Source: Ginglymostoma cirratum
Taxonomy: Eukaryota
Direction: 5' to 3'
Length of the DNA stretch: 64,000 bases
NCBI GenBank assembly: GCA_024137785.1
Contig: JAHRHZ010000289.1
Location: 33,209,164-33,273,163, forward strand
The notes beneath the pieces were generated by a model that had not been told where the DNA came from, ran no database searches, and was given only the letters and a program-made list of their open reading frames with translations. Below are positions 5,770 to 58,020 of this stretch, piece by piece. Made by a program: the position numbers and the translations under genes. Numbering within the stretch: position 1 is the first letter of the stretch; each line of letters opens with the position of its first letter.

Positions 5770-7230
5770 TAGACCATAAAGTCGTAATACAGAGGAGCAG
5801 AAATTAGCCCATTCGGCCTATCGAATCCGCTTCGTCATTCCATCATGGTTGATAAGTTTCTCAGCTCCATGCTCCACTTTCTTCCCGCAACCTTTGATCC
5901 CCTTAACAACAAATAACCTATCTATCTCTGTCTTAAATATACTCAATGACCTGGCCTCCACTGCCTTCTGTGGCAATGAATTCCATATATTCACCACTCT
6001 CTGGCTGAAGAAGTTTCTCCTCATTTCCATTCTAAAGAGTCTTGTCTTTACTCTAAGGCTGTTCCCTCAGGTTCTAGTCTCTCCTGCTAATGGAAACCTC
6101 TTCCCAATGTCCAATCTAGCCAGGCCATTCAGTATTCTGTAAGTTTCAATTAGATCCCCCCTCATCCTTCTAAACTCCATCAAGTATAGACCTAGTGTCC
6201 ACACATGTTCCTTATATGTTAAACCTTTCATTCCCAGGATCATTCTCGTGAACCTCCTCTGGTCATACTCCAGGGCCAGTTCATCCTTCTTGAGGTATAG
6301 AGCCCAAAATTGCTCACAATATTCCAAATGTGATCTGACCAGAGACTTATAAAGCTTCAGAAGGACATCACTGCTTTTATATTCTTGTCCTCTCAAAATA
6401 AATACCAACATTGCATTTGCCTTCCTAACTACCAACTAAACTGCAAATTAATTTTAACAGAATCCTGGACTAGGATTCCCAAGTCCCTTTGCATTTGAGA
6501 TTTCTGAATTATGTCGCCTTTTAGAAAAATATCAACGCTTTTATTCTTCCTACCAAAGTGCATGACATCAGACTTTCCCACATTGTATTCCATCTGCCAT
6601 TTCTTTGTCCACTCTCCTAACCTGTTGAAATCCTTCTTCAGCCTCCCTGCCTCCTCAATTCTACCTGTCCCTCTACTTATCTTTGTATCATCTACAAATT
6701 TAGTCAGAATACCTTCAGTTCCTTCACCTAGATCATTAATACATAAAGTGAAAAGTTGTGGTCCCAACACTAACCCTTGTGGAACTCCACTGGTCACCAG
6801 CTGCCATCCTGAGAAGGACCCTTTTATCCCCACTCTCTGCTTTCTGCCTGACAGCCAATCTTCTATCCATACTAGCACCTTGCCTCTAACACCACGGGCT
6901 CTTACGTTACTCAGCAGCCTCCTGTGCTGCACCTTGTCAAAGTCCTTCTGGAAGTCCGAGTGGGTAACTTCTATTGGCTCCCCTTTGTCTAACCTGCTCA
7001 TCGCCTCCTCAAAGAATTCTAACAGATTTGTCAGGCATGACCTCCCCTTGATGAAACTATACTGACTTTGCCCTATTTTACCATGCACTGCCACATATTC
7101 AGAAATCTCATCTTTCACAATGGGCTCGAGTCCTCTGGGACCCTCCTTGACTCCAGTGATTCCTGAAAGATCACCACTCATGCCTCCACTATCGCTTCAG
7201 CTATCTCCTTCAGAACTCTGGGGTGTAGTG
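5770..7230 (-). mobile_element. CR1 LINE, RT domain to 3' UTR, frameshifted
   Basis: ORFs 6429-7181 (GRSCLTNLLEFFE, DFQKDFDKV, SGVPQGLVLGPQLF, KFVDDTK), 6067-6435 and 5818-6030 are consecutive pieces of CR1 ORF2; the 3' UTR ends near 5770. Confidence 0.95.
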
Positions 7231-10238: not shown

Positions 10239-10333
10239 TTCTGAAGAAGGGTCTAGGCCCGAAACGTCAGCTTTCCTGCTCCTCTGATGCTGCTTGGCCT
10301 GCTGTGTTCATCCAGCTCTACACCTTGTTATCA
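10239..10333 (+). mobile_element. 95-bp PLE family-A mini-element (HHR plus tail) with TSD
   Basis: Homologous to 19030-19123; flanked by AACAAAAGTAGACCT (10224-10238) and AACAAAAGCAGAACCT (10334-10349). Confidence 0.85.
10241..10268 (+). ncRNA. Minimal type I hammerhead ribozyme motif
   Basis: CUGAAGA-A-GGGU(CUAG)GCCC-GAAAC-GUC: intact catalytic core, palindromic ACGU in place of helix III, weak helix I. Confidence 0.65.
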
Positions 10334-16560: not shown

Positions 16561-17660
16561 ATCTCTCACTGAATCATGGTCTTTAGATTAGAGACACTAT
16601 TAGCTCAAGTCTTTACAAAGTGAAAATGGAGATGTCTGGAAAAAGCAAGATCAAACAGCCAGGAATAACCTCCACAGCAAGACAACCTCCTGCAAATCAC
16701 TGTCAGATTTACACACAGTGAATGGATAGTTAGGTGATATAGGAAGCATGCCTAGGTAAACTGCTTCTAAGCGGAGTTTACACACATGTGAAATAAAGAG
16801 ATAATTGAAAAGTAAGGTGAAATTCTCCAGAAAAGGAGCATGCAAAATTACCCTAGTGAAGACTTACTACTCATATTCATTCTCTAAACCTACAACTCAC
16901 ATGAATTAAAAAAAAAAGAACCAAAAACACGAAACACTTGAAATCTGTTTAGATTTTAGTCATGGTTATTAACCTCCGCAGGATCTACTGAAGGAAAGGT
17001 GATAAAGTTCTATCTCCAAAGGTTTATAAGGATCAAAAGTAATTTAGTTCTTGCAGTCCTAGCTTATTAGGTGGAATTAAAAAAAAATTCATATCTGGAG
17101 CTTGATACGTCAGTTTTAATTTTGAAATCTCCTGGGATTGCATACCGAGAGAATGAACATGTTGTACTGCTGAAACACCAAGAAACCATAATCTGGGCTT
17201 TGTTGGGCAGTGTGGGGTTTGGGGCCCCAGAGGAATGACCAAGGGGAAAGAGAAACAAAGTGGAATTGTGTACATGACAGTATGTTGTACCAAATTCATT
17301 TGGAAGCAGTTGTAAAGAATGATTGAAGCATCTCCTGATCGTCAAAGAACATGCCAAAAGGAGCAATTATGGATCATTAATTTCTTGCCCACAAATTCCT
17401 TCAATTTGCACCAGATGGACACAATTGCATTTTCAGGTGCATTCAATTGGTCCCAGTACTTTAAAGAGTTTATACAGTGAGTAATGCACCTGAATCCAAA
17501 TATGACTATGTCTTCAACTTAATTCTGATTTATGGAATAGGTTCAAAAAGAAAAGAGGTAGAATAGAGGAAAATAAAAGTCAAGTATGGTGGATGTTGTA
17601 AATATGAAGCATGGGGCTGGATGAACACAGCAGGTCAATCAGCATCATAGGAGCAGGAAA

Positions 17661-17696
17661 ACTTGACGTTTCGGGCCTAAACCCTTCATCAGAAAT
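17661..17696 (-). ncRNA. Minimal hammerhead ribozyme motif
   Basis: The reverse complement is AUUU-CUGAUGA-A-GGGU(UUAG)GCCC-GAAAC-GUC/AAGU, identical to 19028-19063. Confidence 0.75.
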
Positions 17697-18289
17697 GGGG
17701 GAGGGGAAGAGGGTTCTGAAATAAATAGGGAGAGAGGGGGAGGCGGATAGAGGATGGATAGAGGAGAGGATAGGTGGAGAGGAGGCAGACAAGTTGAAGA
17801 GGTGGGGATGGAGCCAGTAAAGGTGAGTGTCGGTGGGGGCGTAGGGAGGAGATAGGTCAGTCCAGGGAGGACGGACAGGTCAAGGGGGCGGGATGATGTT
17901 AGTAGATTGGAGATGGGGGTGTGGCTTGAGGTGAGAGGAAAAACAGGTTAGGGAGGTGGAGGTGAGCTGGGCTGCTTTTGGGATGCGGTTGGGGGAGGGG
18001 AGATTTTGAAGCTTGTGAAATCCACATTGATGCCATTCGGCTGCAGGGTTCCCAGGCTGAATATGATTTGCTGTTCCTTCAGCCTTCGGGTGGCATCACT
18101 GTGGCATTGGAGGAGGCCCAGGATGGACATGTCATCTGAGGAATGGGAGGGAGAGTTGAAATGGTTCGCGACTGGGAGGTGCAGTTGTTTGTTGCGAACT
18201 GAGCGCAGGTGTTCTGCAAAGCGGTCCCCAAGCCTCCGCTTGGTTTCCCCGATGTAGAGGAAGCCACAACGGGTACAGCCACTCCCCTC

Positions 18290-18776
18290 CAGCCCCACCA
18301 CACCCAGCACTTTTCCTTGTAACCGCAGGAAGTGCTACACCTGCCCCCACACCTCCTCCCTCACCCCAATCCCAGGCCCCAAGAAGACTTTCCACATCAG
18401 GCAGATGTTCACCTGCACATCTGCCAATGTGGTATACTGCATCCGCTGTACCCGTTGTGGCTTCCTCTACATCGGGGAAACCAAGCGGAGGCTTGGGGAC
18501 CGCTTTGCAGAACACCTGTGCTCAGTTCGCAACAAACAACTGCACCTCCCAGTCGCAAACCATTTCAACTCTCCCTCCCATTCCTCAGATGACATGTCCA
18601 TCCTGGGCCTCCTGCAATGCCACAGTGATGCCACCCGAAGGCTGCAGGAACAGCAAATCATATTCAGCCTGGGAACACTGCAGCCCAATGGCATCAATGT
18701 GGATTTCACAAGCTTCAAAATCTCCCCTCCCCCAACCGCATCCCAAAACCAGCCTAGCTCATCTCCACCTCCCTAA
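18290..18776 (+). CDS. PLE GIY-YIG endonuclease domain (5'-truncated ORF fragment)
   Basis: CNRRKCYTC zinc-finger linker, then FTCTSANVVYCIRCTRCGFLYIGETKRRLGDRFAEHL..PVANHF..RRLQEQ..LGTLQPNGIN. An inverted partial copy lies at 17948-18279. Confidence 0.9.
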
Positions 18777-19027
18777 CCTGTTTTCCCTCTCACCCCAAGC
18801 CCCACCCCCATCTCCTATCTCCTAACATCATCCCGCCCCCTTGACCTGTCCGTCCTCCCTGGACTGACCTATCTCCTCCCTACCCCCCTACCTACACTCA
18901 CTTTTACTGGCTCCATCCCCGCCTCTTCGACTTGCCTGCCTCCTCTCCACCTATCCTCTCCTCTATCCATCCTCTATCCGCCTCCCCTTCTCTCCCTATT
19001 TATTTCAGAACCCTCTTCCCCTCCCCC

Positions 19028-19063
19028 ATTTCTGATGAAGGGTTTAGGCCCGAAACGTCAAGT
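19028..19063 (+). ncRNA. Minimal hammerhead ribozyme motif
   Basis: Helix I AUUU/AAGU, core CUGAUGA (19032-38), an extra A, helix II GGGU/GCCC, then GAAAC-GUC with predicted cleavage after C19059. The palindromic ACGU implies dimer-type folding, as described for PLE minimal HHRs. Confidence 0.75.
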
Positions 19064-19164
19064 TTTCCTGCTCCTATGATGCTGCTTGACCTGCTGTGTT
19101 CATCCAGCCCCATGCTTGTTATCTCGGATTCTCCAGCATCTGCATTACCTTTTATTTCTAACCC

Positions 19165-25429: not shown

Positions 25430-26690
25430 GAGGGCACGGTGGTAACGGGAAGAAATGGAATGACAGCAAGATAAAGCCCTGGTCAGACCACACCTAGAAT
25501 GCTTTATACAGTCCTAAACAGCACACCTTACAAGATAATACTGAGCTTGCACAGCAGATTCACCAGGTTCTATGGGTTAGATTATGAGAAGACATTACAT
25601 AAGCCAGAAGGTAAAGCTTGAAAATGAACATAATGGGTGTACTGGAGTTCCATTTTTAAGGGTATGAGGCAAGTCAGACCAGTATATNNNNNNNNNNNNN
25701 NNNNNNNNNNNNNNNNNNNNNNNNNNNNNNNNNNNNNNNNNNNNNNNNNNNNNNNNNNNNNNNNNNNNNNNNNNNNNNNNNNNNNNNNNNNNNNNNNNNN
25801 NNNNNNNNNNNNNNNNNNNNNNNNNNNNNNNNNNNNNNNNNNNNNNNNNNNNNNNNNNNNNNNNNNNNNNNNNNNNNNNNNNNNNNNNNNNNNNNNNNNN
25901 NNNNNNNNNNNNNNNNNNNNNNNNNNNNNNNNNNNNNNNNNNNNNNNNNNNNNNNNNNNNNNNNNNNNNNNNNNNNNNNNNNNNNNNNNNNNNNNNNNNN
26001 NNNNNNNNNNNNNNNNNNNNNNNNNNNNNNNNNNNNNNNNNNNNNNNNNNNNNNNNNNNNNNNNNNNNNNNNNNNNNNNNNNNNNNNTGATGCTGCTTGG
26101 CCTGCTGTGTTCATCCAGCTCTACACCTTGTTATCTCAGTATATATCATCCGCAAGTTTTAATGACTTTTCTCTCTATGAAAACAGGTTTGTATTTCTTG
26201 GAAGATGTAAGATCATGGACTGATTTTTGAATTTTTTTAAAAAAGGTCCTTTTTCACTCATGGAACGTAGGCATTGCTAACTAGGTCAGCATTTTATTGG
26301 CTGACCTTAGCTATCCTTGAGAAGGTGGCAGTGATTTGATTGAGGTGTTCAGAATTTTACAAGAAACCTACTGTACAAATAAAAGAAACATTTTCTCCTG
26401 ATGAGAAGGTCTGGGACAATCGGAAATAATCTTGATATCAGAGTCAGACCTTTTAGGAGGAAAGTTAGGAAATACTTTCTCACGAAAAAATATGGTAGAA
26501 TTGTGAAACCCTCTCCCACCAAAATCAATTGATATTAATTCAATTTATAACAGTAACCTACAATCAATTGATATTTTCTAGTCAAGACCATTACAGGATT
26601 CGGAGCTGAAGTGGTTGGATATAGACCAACCATGAACTCATTGACTAGCAGAGCAAGCTCAAAGGCTGACTGGCTGATTCCTGTTTTGGT
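25430..26690 (+). mobile_element. Old CR1 3' fragments flanking gap 1
   Basis: ALVRPHLE (25477-25500), RFTR, LIEVFRIL and RKYFL motifs, and a CR1-like 3' UTR at 26600-26690. Interrupted by the gap, a PLE tail and an antisense LINE tail at 26255-26333. Confidence 0.6.
25688..26087. other. Assembly gap (400 N)
   Basis: Run of exactly 400 N; the right edge is a family-A PLE tail (26088-26136). Confidence 0.99.
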
Positions 26691-27049
26691 GTTGCTATGA
26701 ATTTATGCGAAATCACACTTCAAGGCAATCTTAAGCAAGAAACATTGGTGTTCTTCAGGCTTATCCTTAGGTCCTATGTGCAACCTAAACTCAAATACTT
26801 CAGGGAAGCTCAGGTCTATCATTACTTTATCAAATACCACAAAAAGCATTATAAATTGCAACTTGAGAATGAATCTGCTGGGTTAGTGTTAACTTTTTGC
26901 ACCTCAGCTCAAAAGTAATGACCCACATTTGTTTACTGTTGCATATTAAACCTTTACATACTGCCTATGTTATCTCTGCAAGCCTAGCCAGAAAGATCTA
27001 CAAAGTGGATTGGGGGATGGGAGAGAAGGCTGCTACCAATTAGCTTCAA

Positions 27050-27281
27050 CACAGTATGGAGCTGGAGGAACACAGCAGGCCAGGCAGCATCAGAGGAGCA
27101 GGAAAGTTGACATTTCAGATCAGGACCCTTCTTCAGAAACCATTTCTTCAAAATTTCTGAAGAAGAGTCCCGATCCAAAATGTCAACTTGCCTGCCCCTC
27201 TGATGCTGCCTGGTCTGCTGTGTTCCTCCAGCTCCATATTGTGTTGTCTCTGACTCCAGCATCTGCAGTTCTTGCTATCTC
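27050..27281. mobile_element. PLE family-A hairpin mini-element with two opposite-strand decayed HHRs
   Basis: Arms ~27050-27138 (-) and 27154-27243 (+), with the tail only on the right. Each arm ends at TTTCTGAAGA. Degenerate TSD ACCAATTAGCTTCAA (27035-49) / ACTAACTCGCCTCAA (27282-96). Confidence 0.85.
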
Positions 27282-30831: not shown

Positions 30832-32068
30832 CAATAAGACCATAAGACCATAAGACATAGGAGTGGAAGTAAGGCCATTCGGCCCATCGAGTCCACTCCA
30901 CCATTTAATCATGGCTGATGGGCATTTCAACTCCACTTACCTGCACTCTCCCCGTAGCCCTTGATTCCTTGCAAGATCAAGAATTTATCAATCTCTGCCT
31001 TGAAGACATTCAACGTCCCGGCCTCCACTGCGCTCCGTGGCAATGAATTCCACAGGCCCACCACTCTCTGGCTGAAGAAATGTCTCCTCATTTCCGTTCT
31101 AAATTGACCCCCTCTAATTCTAAGGCTGTGCCCACTGGTCCTAGTCTCCCCACCTAACGGAAACAACTTCCCAGCGTCCACCCTTTCTAAGCCATGCATT
31201 ATCTTGTAAGTTTCTATTAGATCTCCCCTCAACCTTCTAAACTCTAATGAATACAATCCCAGGATCCTCAACCGTTCATCGTATGTTAGGCCTACCATTC
31301 CAGGAATCATCCGTGTGAATCTCCGCTGGACACGCTCCAGTGCCAGTATGTCCTTCCTGAGGTGTGGGGCCCAAAATTGGACACAGTATTCTAAATGGGG
31401 CCTAACTAGAGCTTTATAAAGTCTCAGAAGCACATCGCTGCTTTTATATTCCAACCTTCTTGAGATAAATGACAACATTCCATTCACTTTCTTAATCATG
31501 GACTCAACCTGCAAGTTAACCTTTAGAGAATCCTGGACTAGCACTCCCAGATCCCTTTGTACTTCGGCTTTATGAATTTTCTCACCTTTCTGAAAACAGT
31601 CCATGCCTGTATTCTTTTCTCCAAAGTGCAAGACCTCGCATTTGCTCACGTTGAATTTCATCAGCCATTTCCTGGACCACTCTCCTAAACTGTCTAAATC
31701 ATTCTGCAGCCTCCCCACCTCCTCAGTACTACCTGCCTGTCCACCCAACTTTGTATCATCGGCAAACTTCGCCAGAATGCCCCCAGTCCCTTCATCCAGA
31801 TCATTAATATATAAAGTGAACAGCTGCGGCCCCAACACTGAACCCTGCAGGATACCACTTGTCGCCAGTTGCCATTCCAAAAAAGAGCCTTTTATCCCAA
31901 CTCTCTGCCTTCTGTCAGACAGCCAATCCTCAATCCATGCCAGTAACTCACCTTGAACACCATGGGCCCTCACCTTACTCAGCAGCCTCCCGTGAGGCAC
32001 CTTATCAAAGGCCTTTTGGAAGTCTAGATAGATAACATCCACTGAATTTCCCTGGTCTAACCTACTTG
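30832..32068 (-). mobile_element. Young 5'-truncated CR1 LINE
   Basis: Uninterrupted RT C-terminal ORF, 3' UTR and (TCTTATGG)n tandem tail; near-identical to 56591-57598. Confidence 0.97.
30927..32068 (-). CDS. CR1 ORF2 reverse transcriptase fragment (open frame, lacks N-terminus)
   Basis: YLDFQKAFDKVPH, LQGSVLGPQLFTLYINDL, KFADDTKLGG, LVRPHLEYCVQFWAP and RRLRGDLIETYKI. The listed start codon comes from flanking DNA. Confidence 0.85.
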
Positions 32069-34178
32069 CTTGTGTGCATGGTTCCAAAGTTTGTTGGTTA
32101 GGTGATCATTTGTAACAATATACTTTGAGTTAGTTCTGCAATTGTCTCAGTAGGCTACTGCTGTATTTTTAGACTCCTTTACTTCTCTCAGTTGTAAATT
32201 GATTGAGGACATCCAGCAGATGTCACAGATCACAATAGAAATGCAACTTCTCTATCTGTCAAACATTGAACAGGTTTTTGACAAACAGGAAATTAATTAT
32301 ACAACTGCATTAAGAATAGCCAGCAAATCCAGGGGCACCATAGAATAATCAAACACAACACTCAGTTTCAACTTCATCAATGAACATTTCGATACTTACT
32401 GTGCATAAGAGGCTTGGCAAATTGTAATAGAGAGATTTTAGAGAAGTTAATGCCATGAGCACTGCTTGACTGTCCACAAAGCTGCAATTTCTCACAACCC
32501 TGCTGTCAGAAGCACCATACTGTGGAAAAAATTAATTGTATTTCTTTGTACGTAAATCACAATTACAGCAGAAAAATGGTGCGATTTATTATTTAATGCT
32601 GGTCTACAAAATAACAAGCCTATGATTTAAAGCATTATTATCGAGCAATGTGGTATTGGTTCTTTGCTTTATTCAGTCAACTTCTTGCAGGAGATAATTG
32701 CTATGCATCTTGCCAGCTATTGATCTCAACGGAGAAATATAAAAGACAGTGGTAAAAAAAAACTGGTGATAGTGAATCAGTTGCTCTGGTATTTTTTCCA
32801 GATGGTCATTCTTGGTATCTCATGGTAGTTGCCACTTCTACCAGTGTCTAAAACCAGGTAAAGTCCTATAAGGTTATTCTCTTTTGACTTTGTATTAGGA
32901 CTACTGATTGATTACTGATGAAGGATTTATCACCACCACCATTGAATACTTCCAGAAAAGGCACTGTTCTCTGATAACACAAATGTTTATTGCATGATAA
33001 TAATAAGTACAACTTCATTTGGTCCAGCATAATTGCTAGGTTTTTAGGGGACTGCTTTCAGATATATCTGCTCACTCCAAAAGCAGGAGTTCATCGGCAT
33101 GTCTCCACCCACAAACTCTGTGCAATATCACTGAAATGGGTGGAGCCCATGTAACATGGACATTAACCCACATTAGAACCATTACCTTATACAACAGCTG
33201 CCATTACTTCACTGGCACAAATTGCTTTAACTCAGCAGCAACATCATCTTTCTTAAAAAAAGCCCAAAGATTTTCATATGGCTGTATTTACATCTTGCAC
33301 AAGTACAACAGGCTGAATGGCCTCTGCGATCTATTCTGAAATCTTCACTCCCACGTGAATTGCCTCTCTCCTTATTAGAAAGAAAAGGAGTTAATCAATG
33401 TTGCATAAGCTCCTTCTGATTCATTTCTGGTCCATCATTGTGTTATTTGATGAGAATAACTTTGTCCCAAGCACTCCAACCTGGCCAATTTTATGTGTGG
33501 CTCTTACCCTCCATAGTTTAAGTTAAATGACCTGGTTCTATTCACATTATTCATGCTTATTAGTGTTAGACCACTTGTGAATTATTGCACAATCCTCAAA
33601 GGTTTAAGAAATTGTGACATTAATTGCAGAAGGTGCTGGGTCCTACAGATAACATGCTGTTGCTGATCCACTGCCGAAAGCAAGAAATAAAATCTCTTAA
33701 TACCACAGCAGCTTTTACACCATGTCCTTCAACATCAGCTCTCTTTTCATCATTATTCCAACAAAACTATCCACATAATAAGAAGACCATACAGATACAA
33801 ATAAGGTCTGTCCAATAGTTTGTGACAATCATTCAGTCCCCCTGCTCTGCATGATGCTCAACCAGTGTAAAATCTTGTCAAGGCATTGTAGTTAACTTTT
33901 ACAGTAACTCATCAAATAATACAGATGGAATACTGTTCAAGTTTCAAAATCATGAAATAATATGAACTTCTGTGCAGCTTACATCCTACTGCAAAAATGA
34001 CTATGCCTATGGCTTTGTCATAGTTGTATCCTAACTCCACCATCACAGCATCTACCAGTTAATTCTTGTTAGTGTATCTTCCCATCGTACTGAGTGGTGA
34101 TGTGACTTTTACTCCCCTATAGTCATTAAGGATGTGGCATACAAGTGAAGTATAAAAGAACAAGCCGCACATGCATTA

Positions 34179-34317
34179 GAGATATAAGGAACTGCATATG
34201 CTGGAGAATCCGAGATAACAAGGTGTAGAGCTGGATGAACACAGCAGGCCAAGCAGCATCATAGGAGCAGGAAAGCTTTCCTGATCCTATGATGCTGCTT
34301 GGCCTGCTGTGTTCATT
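34179..34317. mobile_element. PLE family-A zero-spacer palindromic mini-element
   Basis: 41-bp arms 34235-34275 and 34276-34316 (one mismatch) centred on AAAG|CTTT, with the tailed arm on the left. TSD AAGCCGCACATGCATTA (34162-78) / AAGCTGTATATGCATAA (34318-34). Confidence 0.88.
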
Positions 34318-34384
34318 AAGCTGTATATGCATAATGCCTTTCATGACTTTCACTCATCTAAAATAATAAAAAGAATTTTTAAAA

Positions 34385-49289: not shown

Positions 49290-49804
49290 CAGAGATAAAA
49301 GGTACTGCAGATGCTGGAGAATCCGAGATAACAAGCATGGGGCTGGATGAACACAGCAGGTCAAGCAGCATCATAGGAGCAGGAAAACTTGCTCCTATGA
49401 TGCNNNNNNNNNNNNNNNNNNNNNNNNNNNNNNNNNNNNNNNNNNNNNNNNNNNNNNNNNNNNNNNNNNNNNNNNNNNNNNNNNNNNNNNNNNNNNNNNN
49501 NNNNNNNNNNNNNNNNNNNNNNNNNNNNNNNNNNNNNNNNNNNNNNNNNNNNNNNNNNNNNNNNNNNNNNNNNNNNNNNNNNNNNNNNNNNNNNNNNNNN
49601 NNNNNNNNNNNNNNNNNNNNNNNNNNNNNNNNNNNNNNNNNNNNNNNNNNNNNNNNNNNNNNNNNNNNNNNNNNNNNNNNNNNNNNNNNNNNNNNNNNNN
49701 NNNNNNNNNNNNNNNNNNNNNNNNNNNNNNNNNNNNNNNNNNNNNNNNNNNNNNNNNNNNNNNNNNNNNNNNNNNNNNNNNNNNNNNNNNNNNNNNNNNN
49801 NNNG
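49290..49804. mobile_element. PLE family-A hairpin element spanning gap 2
   Basis: Tailed minus arm 49290-49390, then the inverted arm GCTCCTATGATGC running into the Ns. TSD TTAAACAAATGAACT (49275-89) / TTAAACAAATTAACT (49805-19). Confidence 0.8.
49404..49803. other. Assembly gap (400 N)
   Basis: Run of exactly 400 N. Confidence 0.99.
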
Positions 49805-53429: not shown

Positions 53430-53633
53430 GAAAAGAATCGTGGATGCTGGAAGTCAGAAACAAAAACTCAAATTGCTGGAAAGAGGCAGCGGGTATGGCA
53501 GCATCTGTGGAGAGAAATCAGAGTTAACATTTCAGATCCAGTGACACCTCTTCAGAACAGTTAACTCTAATTTCTCTCCACAGGTGCTGCCAGACCTGCT
53601 AACTTTTTCCAGCAATTTCTGATTTTGTTTCTG
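53430..53633. mobile_element. PLE family-C hairpin mini-element
   Basis: The tailed minus arm 53430-53558 runs through a decayed HHR (minus strand GTTCTGAAGAGGTGTCACTGGATCTGAAATGTTAAC). The plus arm 53560-53633 starts at GTTAACTC. Confidence 0.8.
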
Positions 53634-54680
53634 ATACAAATTTAGCAGCCTTCTACCAGATTAATAAAACCAATCCAGGAACTAACAATTAGCTTAAAAG
53701 ATAATAAATAATTACAGGACACTTAACAAGGATGATGGACAGCCATGTGAAGGTAAACAAGTCAAGGTGCAAAGCTTCATTTTTGCATGTCAAGTGGGCA
53801 GCAGCTAGGAATGTTTCAACTCAACAGAAAGGACAGGAAGAAGAGGCAAAGTCCCACATGACAGCTGAGGGGAAAGCAAGCTTCTGAGGCAGGGATGAGT
53901 TAGTGGTGATGTGAGGAACAGGCAGCGGAGGGAAAACAGTACTCGCAGAATGACATTGAATGCTAATCAACGGGAGTCTGTGATCAAGAGTCGAAGCACA
54001 AAACCAAGGAAGTTAACCTGAAAGAAAGCTCCCTCCACTTATCCAAACTGGAACTGGCCGGTATCAATAGGTTTAGCTTTTCTGGCCTCATTTTGATTGC
54101 AGTACCCTCAGATAGAATTACTCCAGGTTTACTGCCTGACCAATAAAAGAGCATTCCCAAATTCCAAAGGTGTGAGAGAAGATTTTCTCCAGCAATGCTT
54201 AAAGTTTTCCTTCAGAAGAAACAAACACTTGGGTTTTTGAAATCTTTTTGAATTGGGTCCAAACCCAAACTCTGAGAAAAAAAGTTTACAATCACCTTCT
54301 ACTCAGGCAAAACAGCTTGACTATTTGATGTTGTTTCGACTGCCTTATCATTAAACGAAGCCAATGACTAACTATGGAGAAACATCTCATCTTTACCTTG
54401 AATACCTAAAAATGACCATTGCACCTGTAAGAGATTTTACAATGTTTACCAGACATGAAGCTTGTGAAACTAATGTGAATTGCACCACATTATAATCTGT
54501 GGCTCGGACGCTCGGCAACTGAGTCAAAAACTTTTTGGCTCAAATCTCACGTCAGAGATTTGTGGTGGAAAAAATCACAACTGATACTCCAGTTCATTAC
54601 CAATTAAATGCTGCACTATCAGATTTGATGGTTTTTGAAGAGACCTTAAACCAAGGACCTCATCTGTGGAGAAAGACAGA

Positions 54681-54888
54681 AGTCACAAGACACCAGGTTA
54701 TAGTCCAACAGGTTTATTTGAAATCACCAAGCTTTTGGAGTGCTGCTCCTTCACCAGGTGAAGTCACCGGATGAAGGAGCAATGCTCTAAAAGCGTGATA
54801 ATTTCAAATAAGCCTGTTGGACTATAACCTGCTGTTGTGTGATTTCTGACTTTGTCCACCTCAGTCCAGTACTAACACCACCACATCA
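54681..54888. mobile_element. PLE family-B hairpin mini-element inserted into a family-C hairpin
   Basis: Arms ~54681-54761 (-) and 54764-54851 (+) meet at the HHR 5' ends (CCTTCACCAGGTGA-AG-TCACCGGATGAAGG), with the tail on the right. Duplicated target TGTGGAGAAAGA(AA)CAGA at 54665 and 54889. Confidence 0.85.
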
Positions 54889-56329: not shown

Positions 56330-58020
56330 GCATTTGCTTTGACCCAGAGATAAATTTCTGACCCCATGTTTTCCACCACCTTCACCCATCTGCTGCTGAA
56401 ACCCTCATCCATGCTTCTGTCACCTCTAGCTTTGGCTACGCATAAGATCACCCACCTCTACTCCCACAATTTCCTTTCCCTCTCCTGAATAAACTTCATC
56501 TCATCCAAAGCTCTGCTTCCAGTAGCCTAAATCATATATTGTCCTGTCCGCCAAACTCTTGCTTTCTGTCCGGCAACACCTTGATTTTAAATCCCGCTGG
56601 GTTCAGTGTTGGGGCCGCAGCTGTTCACCTTATATATTAATGATCTGGATGAAGGGACTGGGGGCATTCTGGCGAAGTTTGCCGATGATACAAAGTTGGG
56701 TGGACAGGCAGGTAGTACGGAGGAGGTGGGGAGGCTGCAGAATGATTTAGACAGTTTAGGAGAGTGGTCCAGGAAATGGCTGATGAAATTCAACGTGAGC
56801 AAATGCGAGGTCTTGCACTTTGGAAAAAAGAATACAGGCATAGACTATTTTCTGAACGGTGAGAAAATTCATAAAGCCGAAGTACAAAGGGATCTGAGAG
56901 TGCTAGTACACGATTCTCTAAAGGTTAACTTGCAGGTTGAATCCGTGATTAAGAAAGCGAATGGAATGTTGTCATTTATCTCAAGAGGGGTTGGAATATA
57001 AAAGCAGTGACGTGCTTCTGAGACTTTATAAAGCTCTAGTTAGGTCCCATTTAGAATACTGTGTCCAATTTTGGGCCCCACACCTCAGGAAGGACATACT
57101 GGCACTGGAGCGTGTCGAGCGGAGATTCACACGGATGATTCCTGGAATGGTAGGCCTAACATACGATGAACGGTTGAGGATCCTGGGATTGTATTCATTA
57201 GAGTTTAGAAGGTTGAGGGGAGATCTGATAGAAACTTACAAGATAATGCATGGCTTAGAAAGGGTGGACGCTGGGAAGTTGTTTCCGTTAGGTGGGGAGA
57301 CTAGGACCCGTGGGCACAGCCTTAGAATTAGAGGGGGTCAATTTAGAACGGAAATGAGGAGACATTTCTTCAGCCAGAGAGTGGTGGGCCTGTGGAATTC
57401 ATTGCCACAGAGCGCAGTGGAGGCCGGGACGTTGAATGTCTTCAAGGCAGAGATTGATAAATTCTTGATCTCGCAAGGAATCAAGGGCTATGGGGAGAGT
57501 GCGGGTAAGTGGAATTGAAATGCCCATCAGCCATGATTAAATGGTGGAGTGGACTGGATGGGCCGAATGGCCTTACTTCCACTCCTATGTCTTATGATCT
57601 TAAAATTCTTATTAATGCTTTCAAATGTATCCATGTCATCACACCACCAGACACTGGTACATCACCCTACAATCCCCCATCTGTTCTGTAACCTCTTTCA
57701 GCCTGACAACCTCTTTCAAGAACTCTGTGCCCCTCCATTTCTGATCTCTTATGCATCATTCAACTTAATTGGTTCACAATTGACACTCTGCTTTCAGTTG
57801 CTTAAGACTAAGCTTTGGAATTCCTGTCTTAAAGTTCTATGCTGCTTCACCTCTCTTCCTTCAGTGCCTTAAAACTTACCTCTTTGACCAAGCATTGGGT
57901 TAGCTGTCTGAATATCTCCTTGCAGGGCTCGGTCTCAGACCATGTTTGATAACACTCCTGTGAAGTGCTTTGAGATACTTTACTGTGTTAAAGACACTAT
58001 ATAAATTCAATTTTTTTTCT
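56330..58020 (+). mobile_element. L2 LINE 3' part, interrupted by a young CR1
   Basis: SAAETLIHASVTSSF.Y, KL.LIQSSA and DFK|ILI..FK..H motifs continue across the CR1; L2 tail CCTGTGAAGTGCTTTGAGA..GTTAAAG.C.CTATATAAAT at 57957-58005. Confidence 0.8.
56591..57598 (+). mobile_element. Young 5'-truncated CR1 LINE with TSD
   Basis: ORFs 56606-57001 and 56961-57518 (one frameshift near 56988) are near-identical to the 30927 ORF. TSD TGATTTTAAA (56582-91) / TGATCTTAAA (57595-604). Confidence 0.97.

Follow-up and report, generated by a model that had tools for sequence, protein, structure and literature searches.

A short inverted Penelope-like insertion in Ginglymostoma cirratum whose arms meet at a predicted hammerhead cleavage site

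The insertion, its empty site and its parent family

We analyzed a 64,000-nucleotide stretch of Ginglymostoma cirratum DNA (the window, in whose positions all coordinates are given) and found that the 139-base palindrome at 34179-34317 is a short tail-out inverted insertion of a Penelope-like retrotransposon (PLE), flanked by a TSD. The inverted repeat (34226-34325) has no spacer and its centre lies between 34275 and 34276, on the first bases 3' of the predicted hammerhead (HHR) cut, which follows GTC; we number the first base 3' of this cut as +1. The initial annotation had described exactly this arrangement, and it had also reported the ribozyme core as missing, in agreement with our search for the pattern CTGANGA..GAAAC, which had no match at the locus. 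The letters at the centre are AAGCTT (34273-34278), common to both arms and corresponding to +1 to +6 after the cut in one subfamily of the family (subfamily C, see below). The annotation's 41 bp holds for the paired stretch on each side, with one mismatch, but the two arms are not equal as it had supposed. The long arm (34178-34278, 101 bp, minus strand in RNA sense) covers the PLE tail from its 3' end (+101) to +1, and copies of the family end at 34178. The short arm (34273-34316, 44 bp, plus strand) runs from +1 to +44 in RNA sense, and a substitution 9 nt from the centre is specific to one arm.

The TSD consists of a left copy at 34162-34176 and a right copy at 34318-34332, both on the plus strand, which are identical at 12 out of 15 positions; the probability of such a match in random window pairs was 3.4e-4. 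We looked for the orthologous locus in public runs of a relative, which share ~20% of the words of the 64-kb stretch. A single contig joined 34161 to 34318 in runs X2, X5 and X8, from three studies, and the right flank followed 34176 directly in runs X2 and X9. The relative thus has an empty site with a single TSD copy, and the TSD is therefore 15 bp long; a decayed TSD does flank the unit as annotated, but its proposed length of 17 bp needs a mismatch. A contig from a second organism (B), which reaches 34170 only, suggests an empty site there as well. A longer allele retaining the HHRs was not seen in the relatives. Three C/T transitions separate the two TSD copies, which is many for an insertion younger than a ~5% split, and the relative's single copy is apparently nearer to the right copy than to the left. 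This may be explained by deamination at insertion, by recombination with an empty allele or by a precise loss in the relative.

The assembly has no gap at the palindrome. Both gaps of the window (25688-26087 and 49404-49803, 400 N) adjoin copies of the family, whose hairpins seem to break the assembly. A second example lies beside one of them, at 49291-49403, where a subfamily B arm ends at the cut or 1 nt past it, turns back and runs into the gap.

The parent of the family was recognized within an inverted PLE insertion at 17607-19160. A reading frame on the plus strand (18258-18776) encodes the C-terminal GIY-YIG endonuclease of a PLE; PF01541 matched 18258-18773 with an E-value of 2.9e-6 and 27.9 bits against a cut-off of 22.6. 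This reading frame, a 3' region, a minimal hammerhead and then the tail found in the palindrome follow one another contiguously from 18258 to 19160, an order that identifies the family of the palindrome as the 3' end of a GIY-YIG (EN+) PLE with a minimal HHR. The intact subfamily B motif, located by motif search at 19027-19064 (plus strand), has its predicted cut between 19059 and 19060. Cleavage in this family is predicted from the motif, which carries CUGANGA, GAAA, an NUH cut triplet, an unpaired base before helix II, the G10.1-C11.1 pair and a palindromic 15.2-16.2. Helix II is wholly paired in the two commonest variants, which make up 84 of 139 copies, and a folding computation predicted dimer pairing. 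An Rfam scan of the window returned no hammerhead match at the gathering score; these minimal HHRs are without helix III. HHR-retaining hairpins of the family also occur, for example at 27047-27246.

Three subfamilies can be told apart by the letters just after the cut, namely A (AGCT), B (AAGTTT) and C (AAGCTT). Helix I, for which 4-5 bp are expected in a minimal type I hammerhead, has 4 bp in B, 3 bp in C as read from the sequence and an internal mismatch in A, and the intact subfamily A junction had 30,664 matches genome-wide. The palindrome element is of the TAGG variant. The three full copies that score best for it (L250, L113 and L242) all belong to subfamily C with cut|AAGCTT, so that the self-complementary stretch at its centre is most likely 6 nt long and begins exactly at the cut. 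The copy at 10261, on which the annotation had modelled the element, is from another subfamily, A (cut|AGCT), than the element, which is likely subfamily C.

Some further features of the family and the window were noted. Short copies have their main 5' boundary at -31/-32, just upstream of the ribozyme core (window 10238, 27139 and 27154, as well as background copies); this boundary is possibly a transcription start, and the CCATTTC found there is initiator-like. Two LINE-type reverse-transcriptase fragments, 97% identical and oppositely oriented, lie at 30843-31853 and 56591-57602, with an older copy at 5771-6998. Decayed palindromic repeats of another, related-looking family are found at 53454-53634 and 54666-54859.

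Junctions at the cut base in the genome

We searched the genome for palindromes with the same centre and obtained 149 forward and 146 reverse exact matches, some of them printed twice around gaps, against 3 and 1 for a control motif. The element is thus one of ~150 such mini-insertions, without evident function. Among the gap-free rows with an AGCT centre, one arm measured 89-100 bp in 25 out of 31 and the second arm 59-64 bp in 12 out of 31; the short arms cluster at the family's second tail site and none is longer. A flanking repeat scoring at least 9 accompanied 20 of these 31 rows. As a comparison with other centres, which the initial annotation had called for, we counted palindromes centred on an ACGT located 2-5 nt upstream of the cut and found 60 genome-wide, against ~149 at the cut.

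The ACGT-centred palindromes nevertheless led us to reject the AGCT centre as proof of cleavage by itself. They show that microhomology alone makes such palindromes, and a single locus therefore proves little. In an explanation by microhomology only, cDNAs from uncleaved RNA would have been truncated or resected and joined at AAGCTT, or a longer hairpin would have lost its centre between two AAGCTT copies, and the match with the cut site would be a coincidence at this locus. Many other short-spacer junctions exist, since 1,533 inverted junctions were counted genome-wide and the 50 that we inspected were varied. Most of the sampled AGCT centres carry the TAGG variant, which is linked to the 6-nt palindrome, and HHR-retaining hairpins exist. 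Since the relatives show an empty site and not a longer allele, a later deletion is conceivable, but the failure to see a longer allele also speaks against it. On the other hand, we estimated from sampled shares that the cut-site centre is ~2.5 times as frequent as the ACGT centre in subfamily A, whose two palindromes have the same length of 4 nt. The corresponding ratio of ~5 in subfamily C is confounded by the longer microhomology at the cut centre, and the element holds no 6-nt control palindrome elsewhere. Taken with the palindrome-free junctions described next, we judge the explanation by microhomology only to be unlikely for this element, while keeping it as the foremost competitor.

Subfamily B has no palindrome at the cut, and its junctions are therefore informative in a way that microhomology cannot imitate, since it cannot yield blunt +1/+1 joins or +1 restart junctions. 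Head-to-head joins in subfamily B gave 26 rows, of which 17 were ACGT-centred, six were blunt +1/+1 joins, two were +1/+1 joins with 1-3 extra A/T and one was of another kind (the search pattern is blind to ends short of +1). The cut/cut combination, one of 16 possible, thus accounted for 6 out of the 7 purely templated non-ACGT joins (P = 4e-7). Counted by locus, there were 15 ACGT-centred against 8 cut/cut joins. One locus in this search, L408, was a near twin of the palindrome element with a 15-bp TSD.

A second palindrome-free class was provided by restart junctions, in which one arm ends and another copy of the same orientation begins near the tail end. We had noticed this class before counting it, so that its choice was not blind, while the +1 position had been predicted beforehand. 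In the first set, with all 85 matches scored by script, 19 out of 38 rows from the TAGG subfamilies ended at +1 with varied letters on the partner side, or 16 out of 35 loci once two partner arms and one nested insertion were removed. A second set of 49 rows, seven of which were dropped, contributed 42 new loci with 10 at +1 when scored by eye, the ambiguous L373 and L384 not being counted as +1; by script, 7 of its first 30 rows ended there. Overall, 26 of 77 loci ended at +1 (P = 1e-8 against a generous null of 10%), and 18 of 69 did so when junctions with letters common to the partner were left out (P = 1e-4). The second set also showed a diffuse cluster at -28 to -35 (14 loci), which matches the main 5' boundary of the family and therefore serves as a positive control. 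Joints of the same type in subfamily A fell at +1 or -1 in only 2 out of 22 cases, compared to the 16 out of 35 in the TAGG subfamilies (Fisher P = 0.004). The +1 signal thus appears to track helix I as predicted from the motifs, which pairs over 4 bp in B and has an internal mismatch in A. Repeated tail-to-+1 units were found in L266 and L336, and in L280, L289, L303 and L320 an inverted arm starts at +1 too.

Two observations were made alongside these counts. L266, L336 and L324 hold two to three tandem units of ~100 nt from tail end to cut, with joints that are all alike in L336 but vary in L266; template jumping or a small circular RNA may have produced them. Position -14, in helix II of older subfamily A hammerheads, holds inserted copies in 14 out of 47 GAGG rows (L274, L281, L297, L300, L311, L314, L315, L321-L323, L327, L328, L331 and L334), mostly of younger subfamilies. 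These look like site-preferred insertions of the element into its own pseudo-LTR. We had considered the 14 rows as restart junctions and set them aside as nested insertions, as the inner tail start came mostly from a younger subfamily.

Plain truncations near the ribozyme gave a less sharp picture. By eye, 88 truncations of subfamilies B and C kept among 100 listed of 591 ended at +3 (9), +2 (19), +1 (27), -1 (4), -2 (4), -3 (9) and -4 (16), and the step from 27 at +1 to 4 at -1 had a P of 2e-4. The first 30 loci of this set were flatter when scored by script (+1 7, +2 7, -1 2, -4 8). In subfamily A, 86 kept among 100 listed gave 18 at +1, 3 at -1 and 23 at -2, 16 of the latter using a CTGA repeat. 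A broad sample of truncated copies, scored by script for 90 of 100 listed, had its most frequent ends at -17 (8), +9 (8), -8 (6) and +1 (5). Rows left out by eye (12 of 100 for B/C, 14 of 100 for A and 5 of 100 in a set around +7) had internal indels, were duplicates or belonged to another family, and one further set of truncations entered only as a total. Scaled to the genome, there were ~775 truncations at +1, ~896 at +7, 611 at +6 and +8 and ~400 per upstream position. We had expected a single dominant spike at +1 over all truncations and did not find it, with +7 being as high; there is a cliff at the cut, only ~2-fold enriched and without a lone spike. The broad excess at +6 to +8, equal to that at +1, may reflect a pause or trimming of run-off cDNA.

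Origin of the junctions

The initial annotation had proposed that a cDNA end at the cut is a footprint of hammerhead cleavage. The palindrome-free junctions (restart junctions, 26 of 77; blunt joins, 6 of 7) lend this idea independent support across the family. At the palindrome itself cleavage is not proven, because ACGT palindromes form too and the longer microhomology should be favoured anyway. With a probability of roughly 0.6, we propose that the palindrome was made from RNA with a hammerhead-cleaved 5' end, two run-off cDNAs having annealed through AAGCTT. For the family as a whole we are more confident and consider it quite likely that cDNA ends record hammerhead cleavage of PLE RNA.

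In the mechanism that we envisage, the PLE protein would nick both target strands ~15 bp apart and reverse transcription would begin inside the RNA at two tail sites, at about +101 and +65. Once the RNA had been cleaved, each cDNA could extend by no more than 100 nt before running off at +1. In subfamily C both cDNA 3' ends would read AAGCTT and could anneal mutually to give a palindrome without a spacer, the short arm being trimmed or joined at +44 and repair sealing the TSD. In subfamily B, which has no palindrome, the same ends might be joined bluntly, or the enzyme might restart near the tail to give short tandem units. Elements of this scheme have a biochemical counterpart, since PMC11167929 reports that in vitro the PLE protein cleaves the two target strands and extends each of them, and that reverse transcription starts at two internal sites bounding the tail. 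The same source counts against the cleavage reading for the Anolis PLE, for which it describes cleavage as unneeded in vitro and no RNA-seq reads beginning or ending at the cut.

The annotation had favoured self-priming, in which a single cDNA end folds back and primes the inverted arm. We regard this as the weaker option because a zero-loop hairpin is strained, with a computed -0.9 kcal/mol for the single-end fold-back versus -5.8 kcal/mol for two annealed ends; moreover, the short arms never exceed the second tail site. Private variants common to both arms fit fold-back and two cDNAs off one source alike.

A defined RNA end at +1 could also arise by means other than ribozyme chemistry, through a second transcription start, a protein nuclease or a stop of reverse transcription at a folded or dimeric HHR. 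Genomic junctions carry no end chemistry, PLE pseudo-LTRs are described as holding promoters (PMC2377424, accessible part), metazoan minimal HHRs cleave poorly in vitro according to the accessible part of PMC4209133, and the +7 peak indicates that other stops occur. However, +1 is the exact base of the hammerhead rule (3' of GUC), and this is so in subfamilies that differ in the letters downstream of it. If the folded structure stopped the enzyme, cDNAs should end at the base of helix I (+3/+4) or at helix II (-8) rather than at +1, and the main 5' boundary, at -31/-32, is elsewhere than a second start at +1 would be. We therefore consider such an origin improbable.

An artefact of library or assembly, either a longer hairpin collapsed by the short-read assembler, as the annotation had allowed, or fold-back chimeras, is very improbable. 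In its favour, an N gap was found within 60 bases in 16 of the 47 AGCT-centre rows sampled, both window gaps adjoin family copies, some palindromes appear in duplicate around a gap and no public run has more than 20% of the words of the stretch, which places the palindrome allele itself beyond a read-level check. The locus, however, is gap-free with unequal arms, an arm-specific substitution and a TSD that matches the relative's empty site, and a centre of this kind is spanned gap-free by contig X13 record 6 (34222-34316), a paralogue from an independent run of a different organism.

Returning to hammerhead cleavage as the preferred origin, we lean towards a general form of it in which the genome keeps a germ-line record of PLE hammerhead cleavage. 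The PLE protein would bind cleaved RNA and reverse-transcribe it starting at the internal tail sites, and the run-off cDNAs of ~100 nt would end up in head-to-head joins or tandem restarts. As the trace would vary in strength with helix I from one subfamily to the next, cut-site pile-ups could, if this is true, act as a sequence-only assay of which PLE ribozymes were active in any genome.

Comparison with known systems

The base-exact pile-up of junctions bears on an open question: do the minimal hammerheads in animal PLEs cleave their RNA in vivo, and does the cleaved RNA take part in transposition? Cleavage in vivo is a proposal in PMC6765202, as far as its accessible text goes. The pile-up is indirect in vivo evidence, it can be sought again in any PLE-rich assembly, and it supports two-ended reverse transcription as the origin of PLE inverted repeats. 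A full-text literature search found no description of a pile-up of PLE junctions at the cut of the hammerhead; subscription papers were mostly outside its coverage, and the supplement of PMC11167929 (Fig. S2, ends of genomic copies) may bear on novelty. In the sources accessible to us, in part for all of those compared below, an inverted truncated PLE insertion is a known kind of structure, while the cut-site footprint was not found in print.

The closest relatives are the inverted, 5'-truncated insertions of EN+ PLEs with a 30-40 bp tail at one end (PMC8557442; PMC11167929). They share with our element the tail-out inverted arms, one arm typically ~35 nt longer, the HHR in the pseudo-LTR and the C-terminal GIY-YIG in the parent. 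Here, in contrast, the ribozyme is gone and each arm ends at the HHR cut, and the accessible parts of these papers do not describe the cut as a preferred junction. The hammerhead itself resembles the minimal type I hammerheads of metazoan PLEs (PMC4209133) in its core, the unpaired base before helix II, the G-C closing pair, the palindromic helix III stub and, as far as subfamily B is concerned, the short helix I. Those ribozymes are described there as having low activity in vitro and no in vivo evidence, whereas the family studied here has left an indirect trace in the genome.

Non-LTR retrozymes (bioRxiv 10.64898/2026.07.22.740005) are likewise non-coding and PLE-derived, with short tandem units bounded by HHR cuts. 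Retrozyme units, however, keep the HHR and run from cut to cut, whereas the units found here extend between the cut and the tail end, with mostly variable joints. We rejected an identity with retrozymes because both the element and the short tandem units are without the HHR core.

R2 elements with an HDV-like ribozyme are alike in logic, as the self-cleavage site sets the 5' end of the RNA and correlates with the genomic 5' junction (PMC3774820). Engineered R2 insertions also show snap-back and extra-template junctions with untemplated bases at the 5' end (PMC11331408). R2 differs in being a site-specific LINE with another class of ribozyme, whose cleavage makes a full-length template (PMC3774820; PMC11331408). 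Unlike in R2, cleavage of a PLE RNA would leave only ~100 nt of template, counted from the internal start to the 5' end, and would lead to dead mini-insertions, suggesting that cleavage may limit rather than enable full-length jumps.
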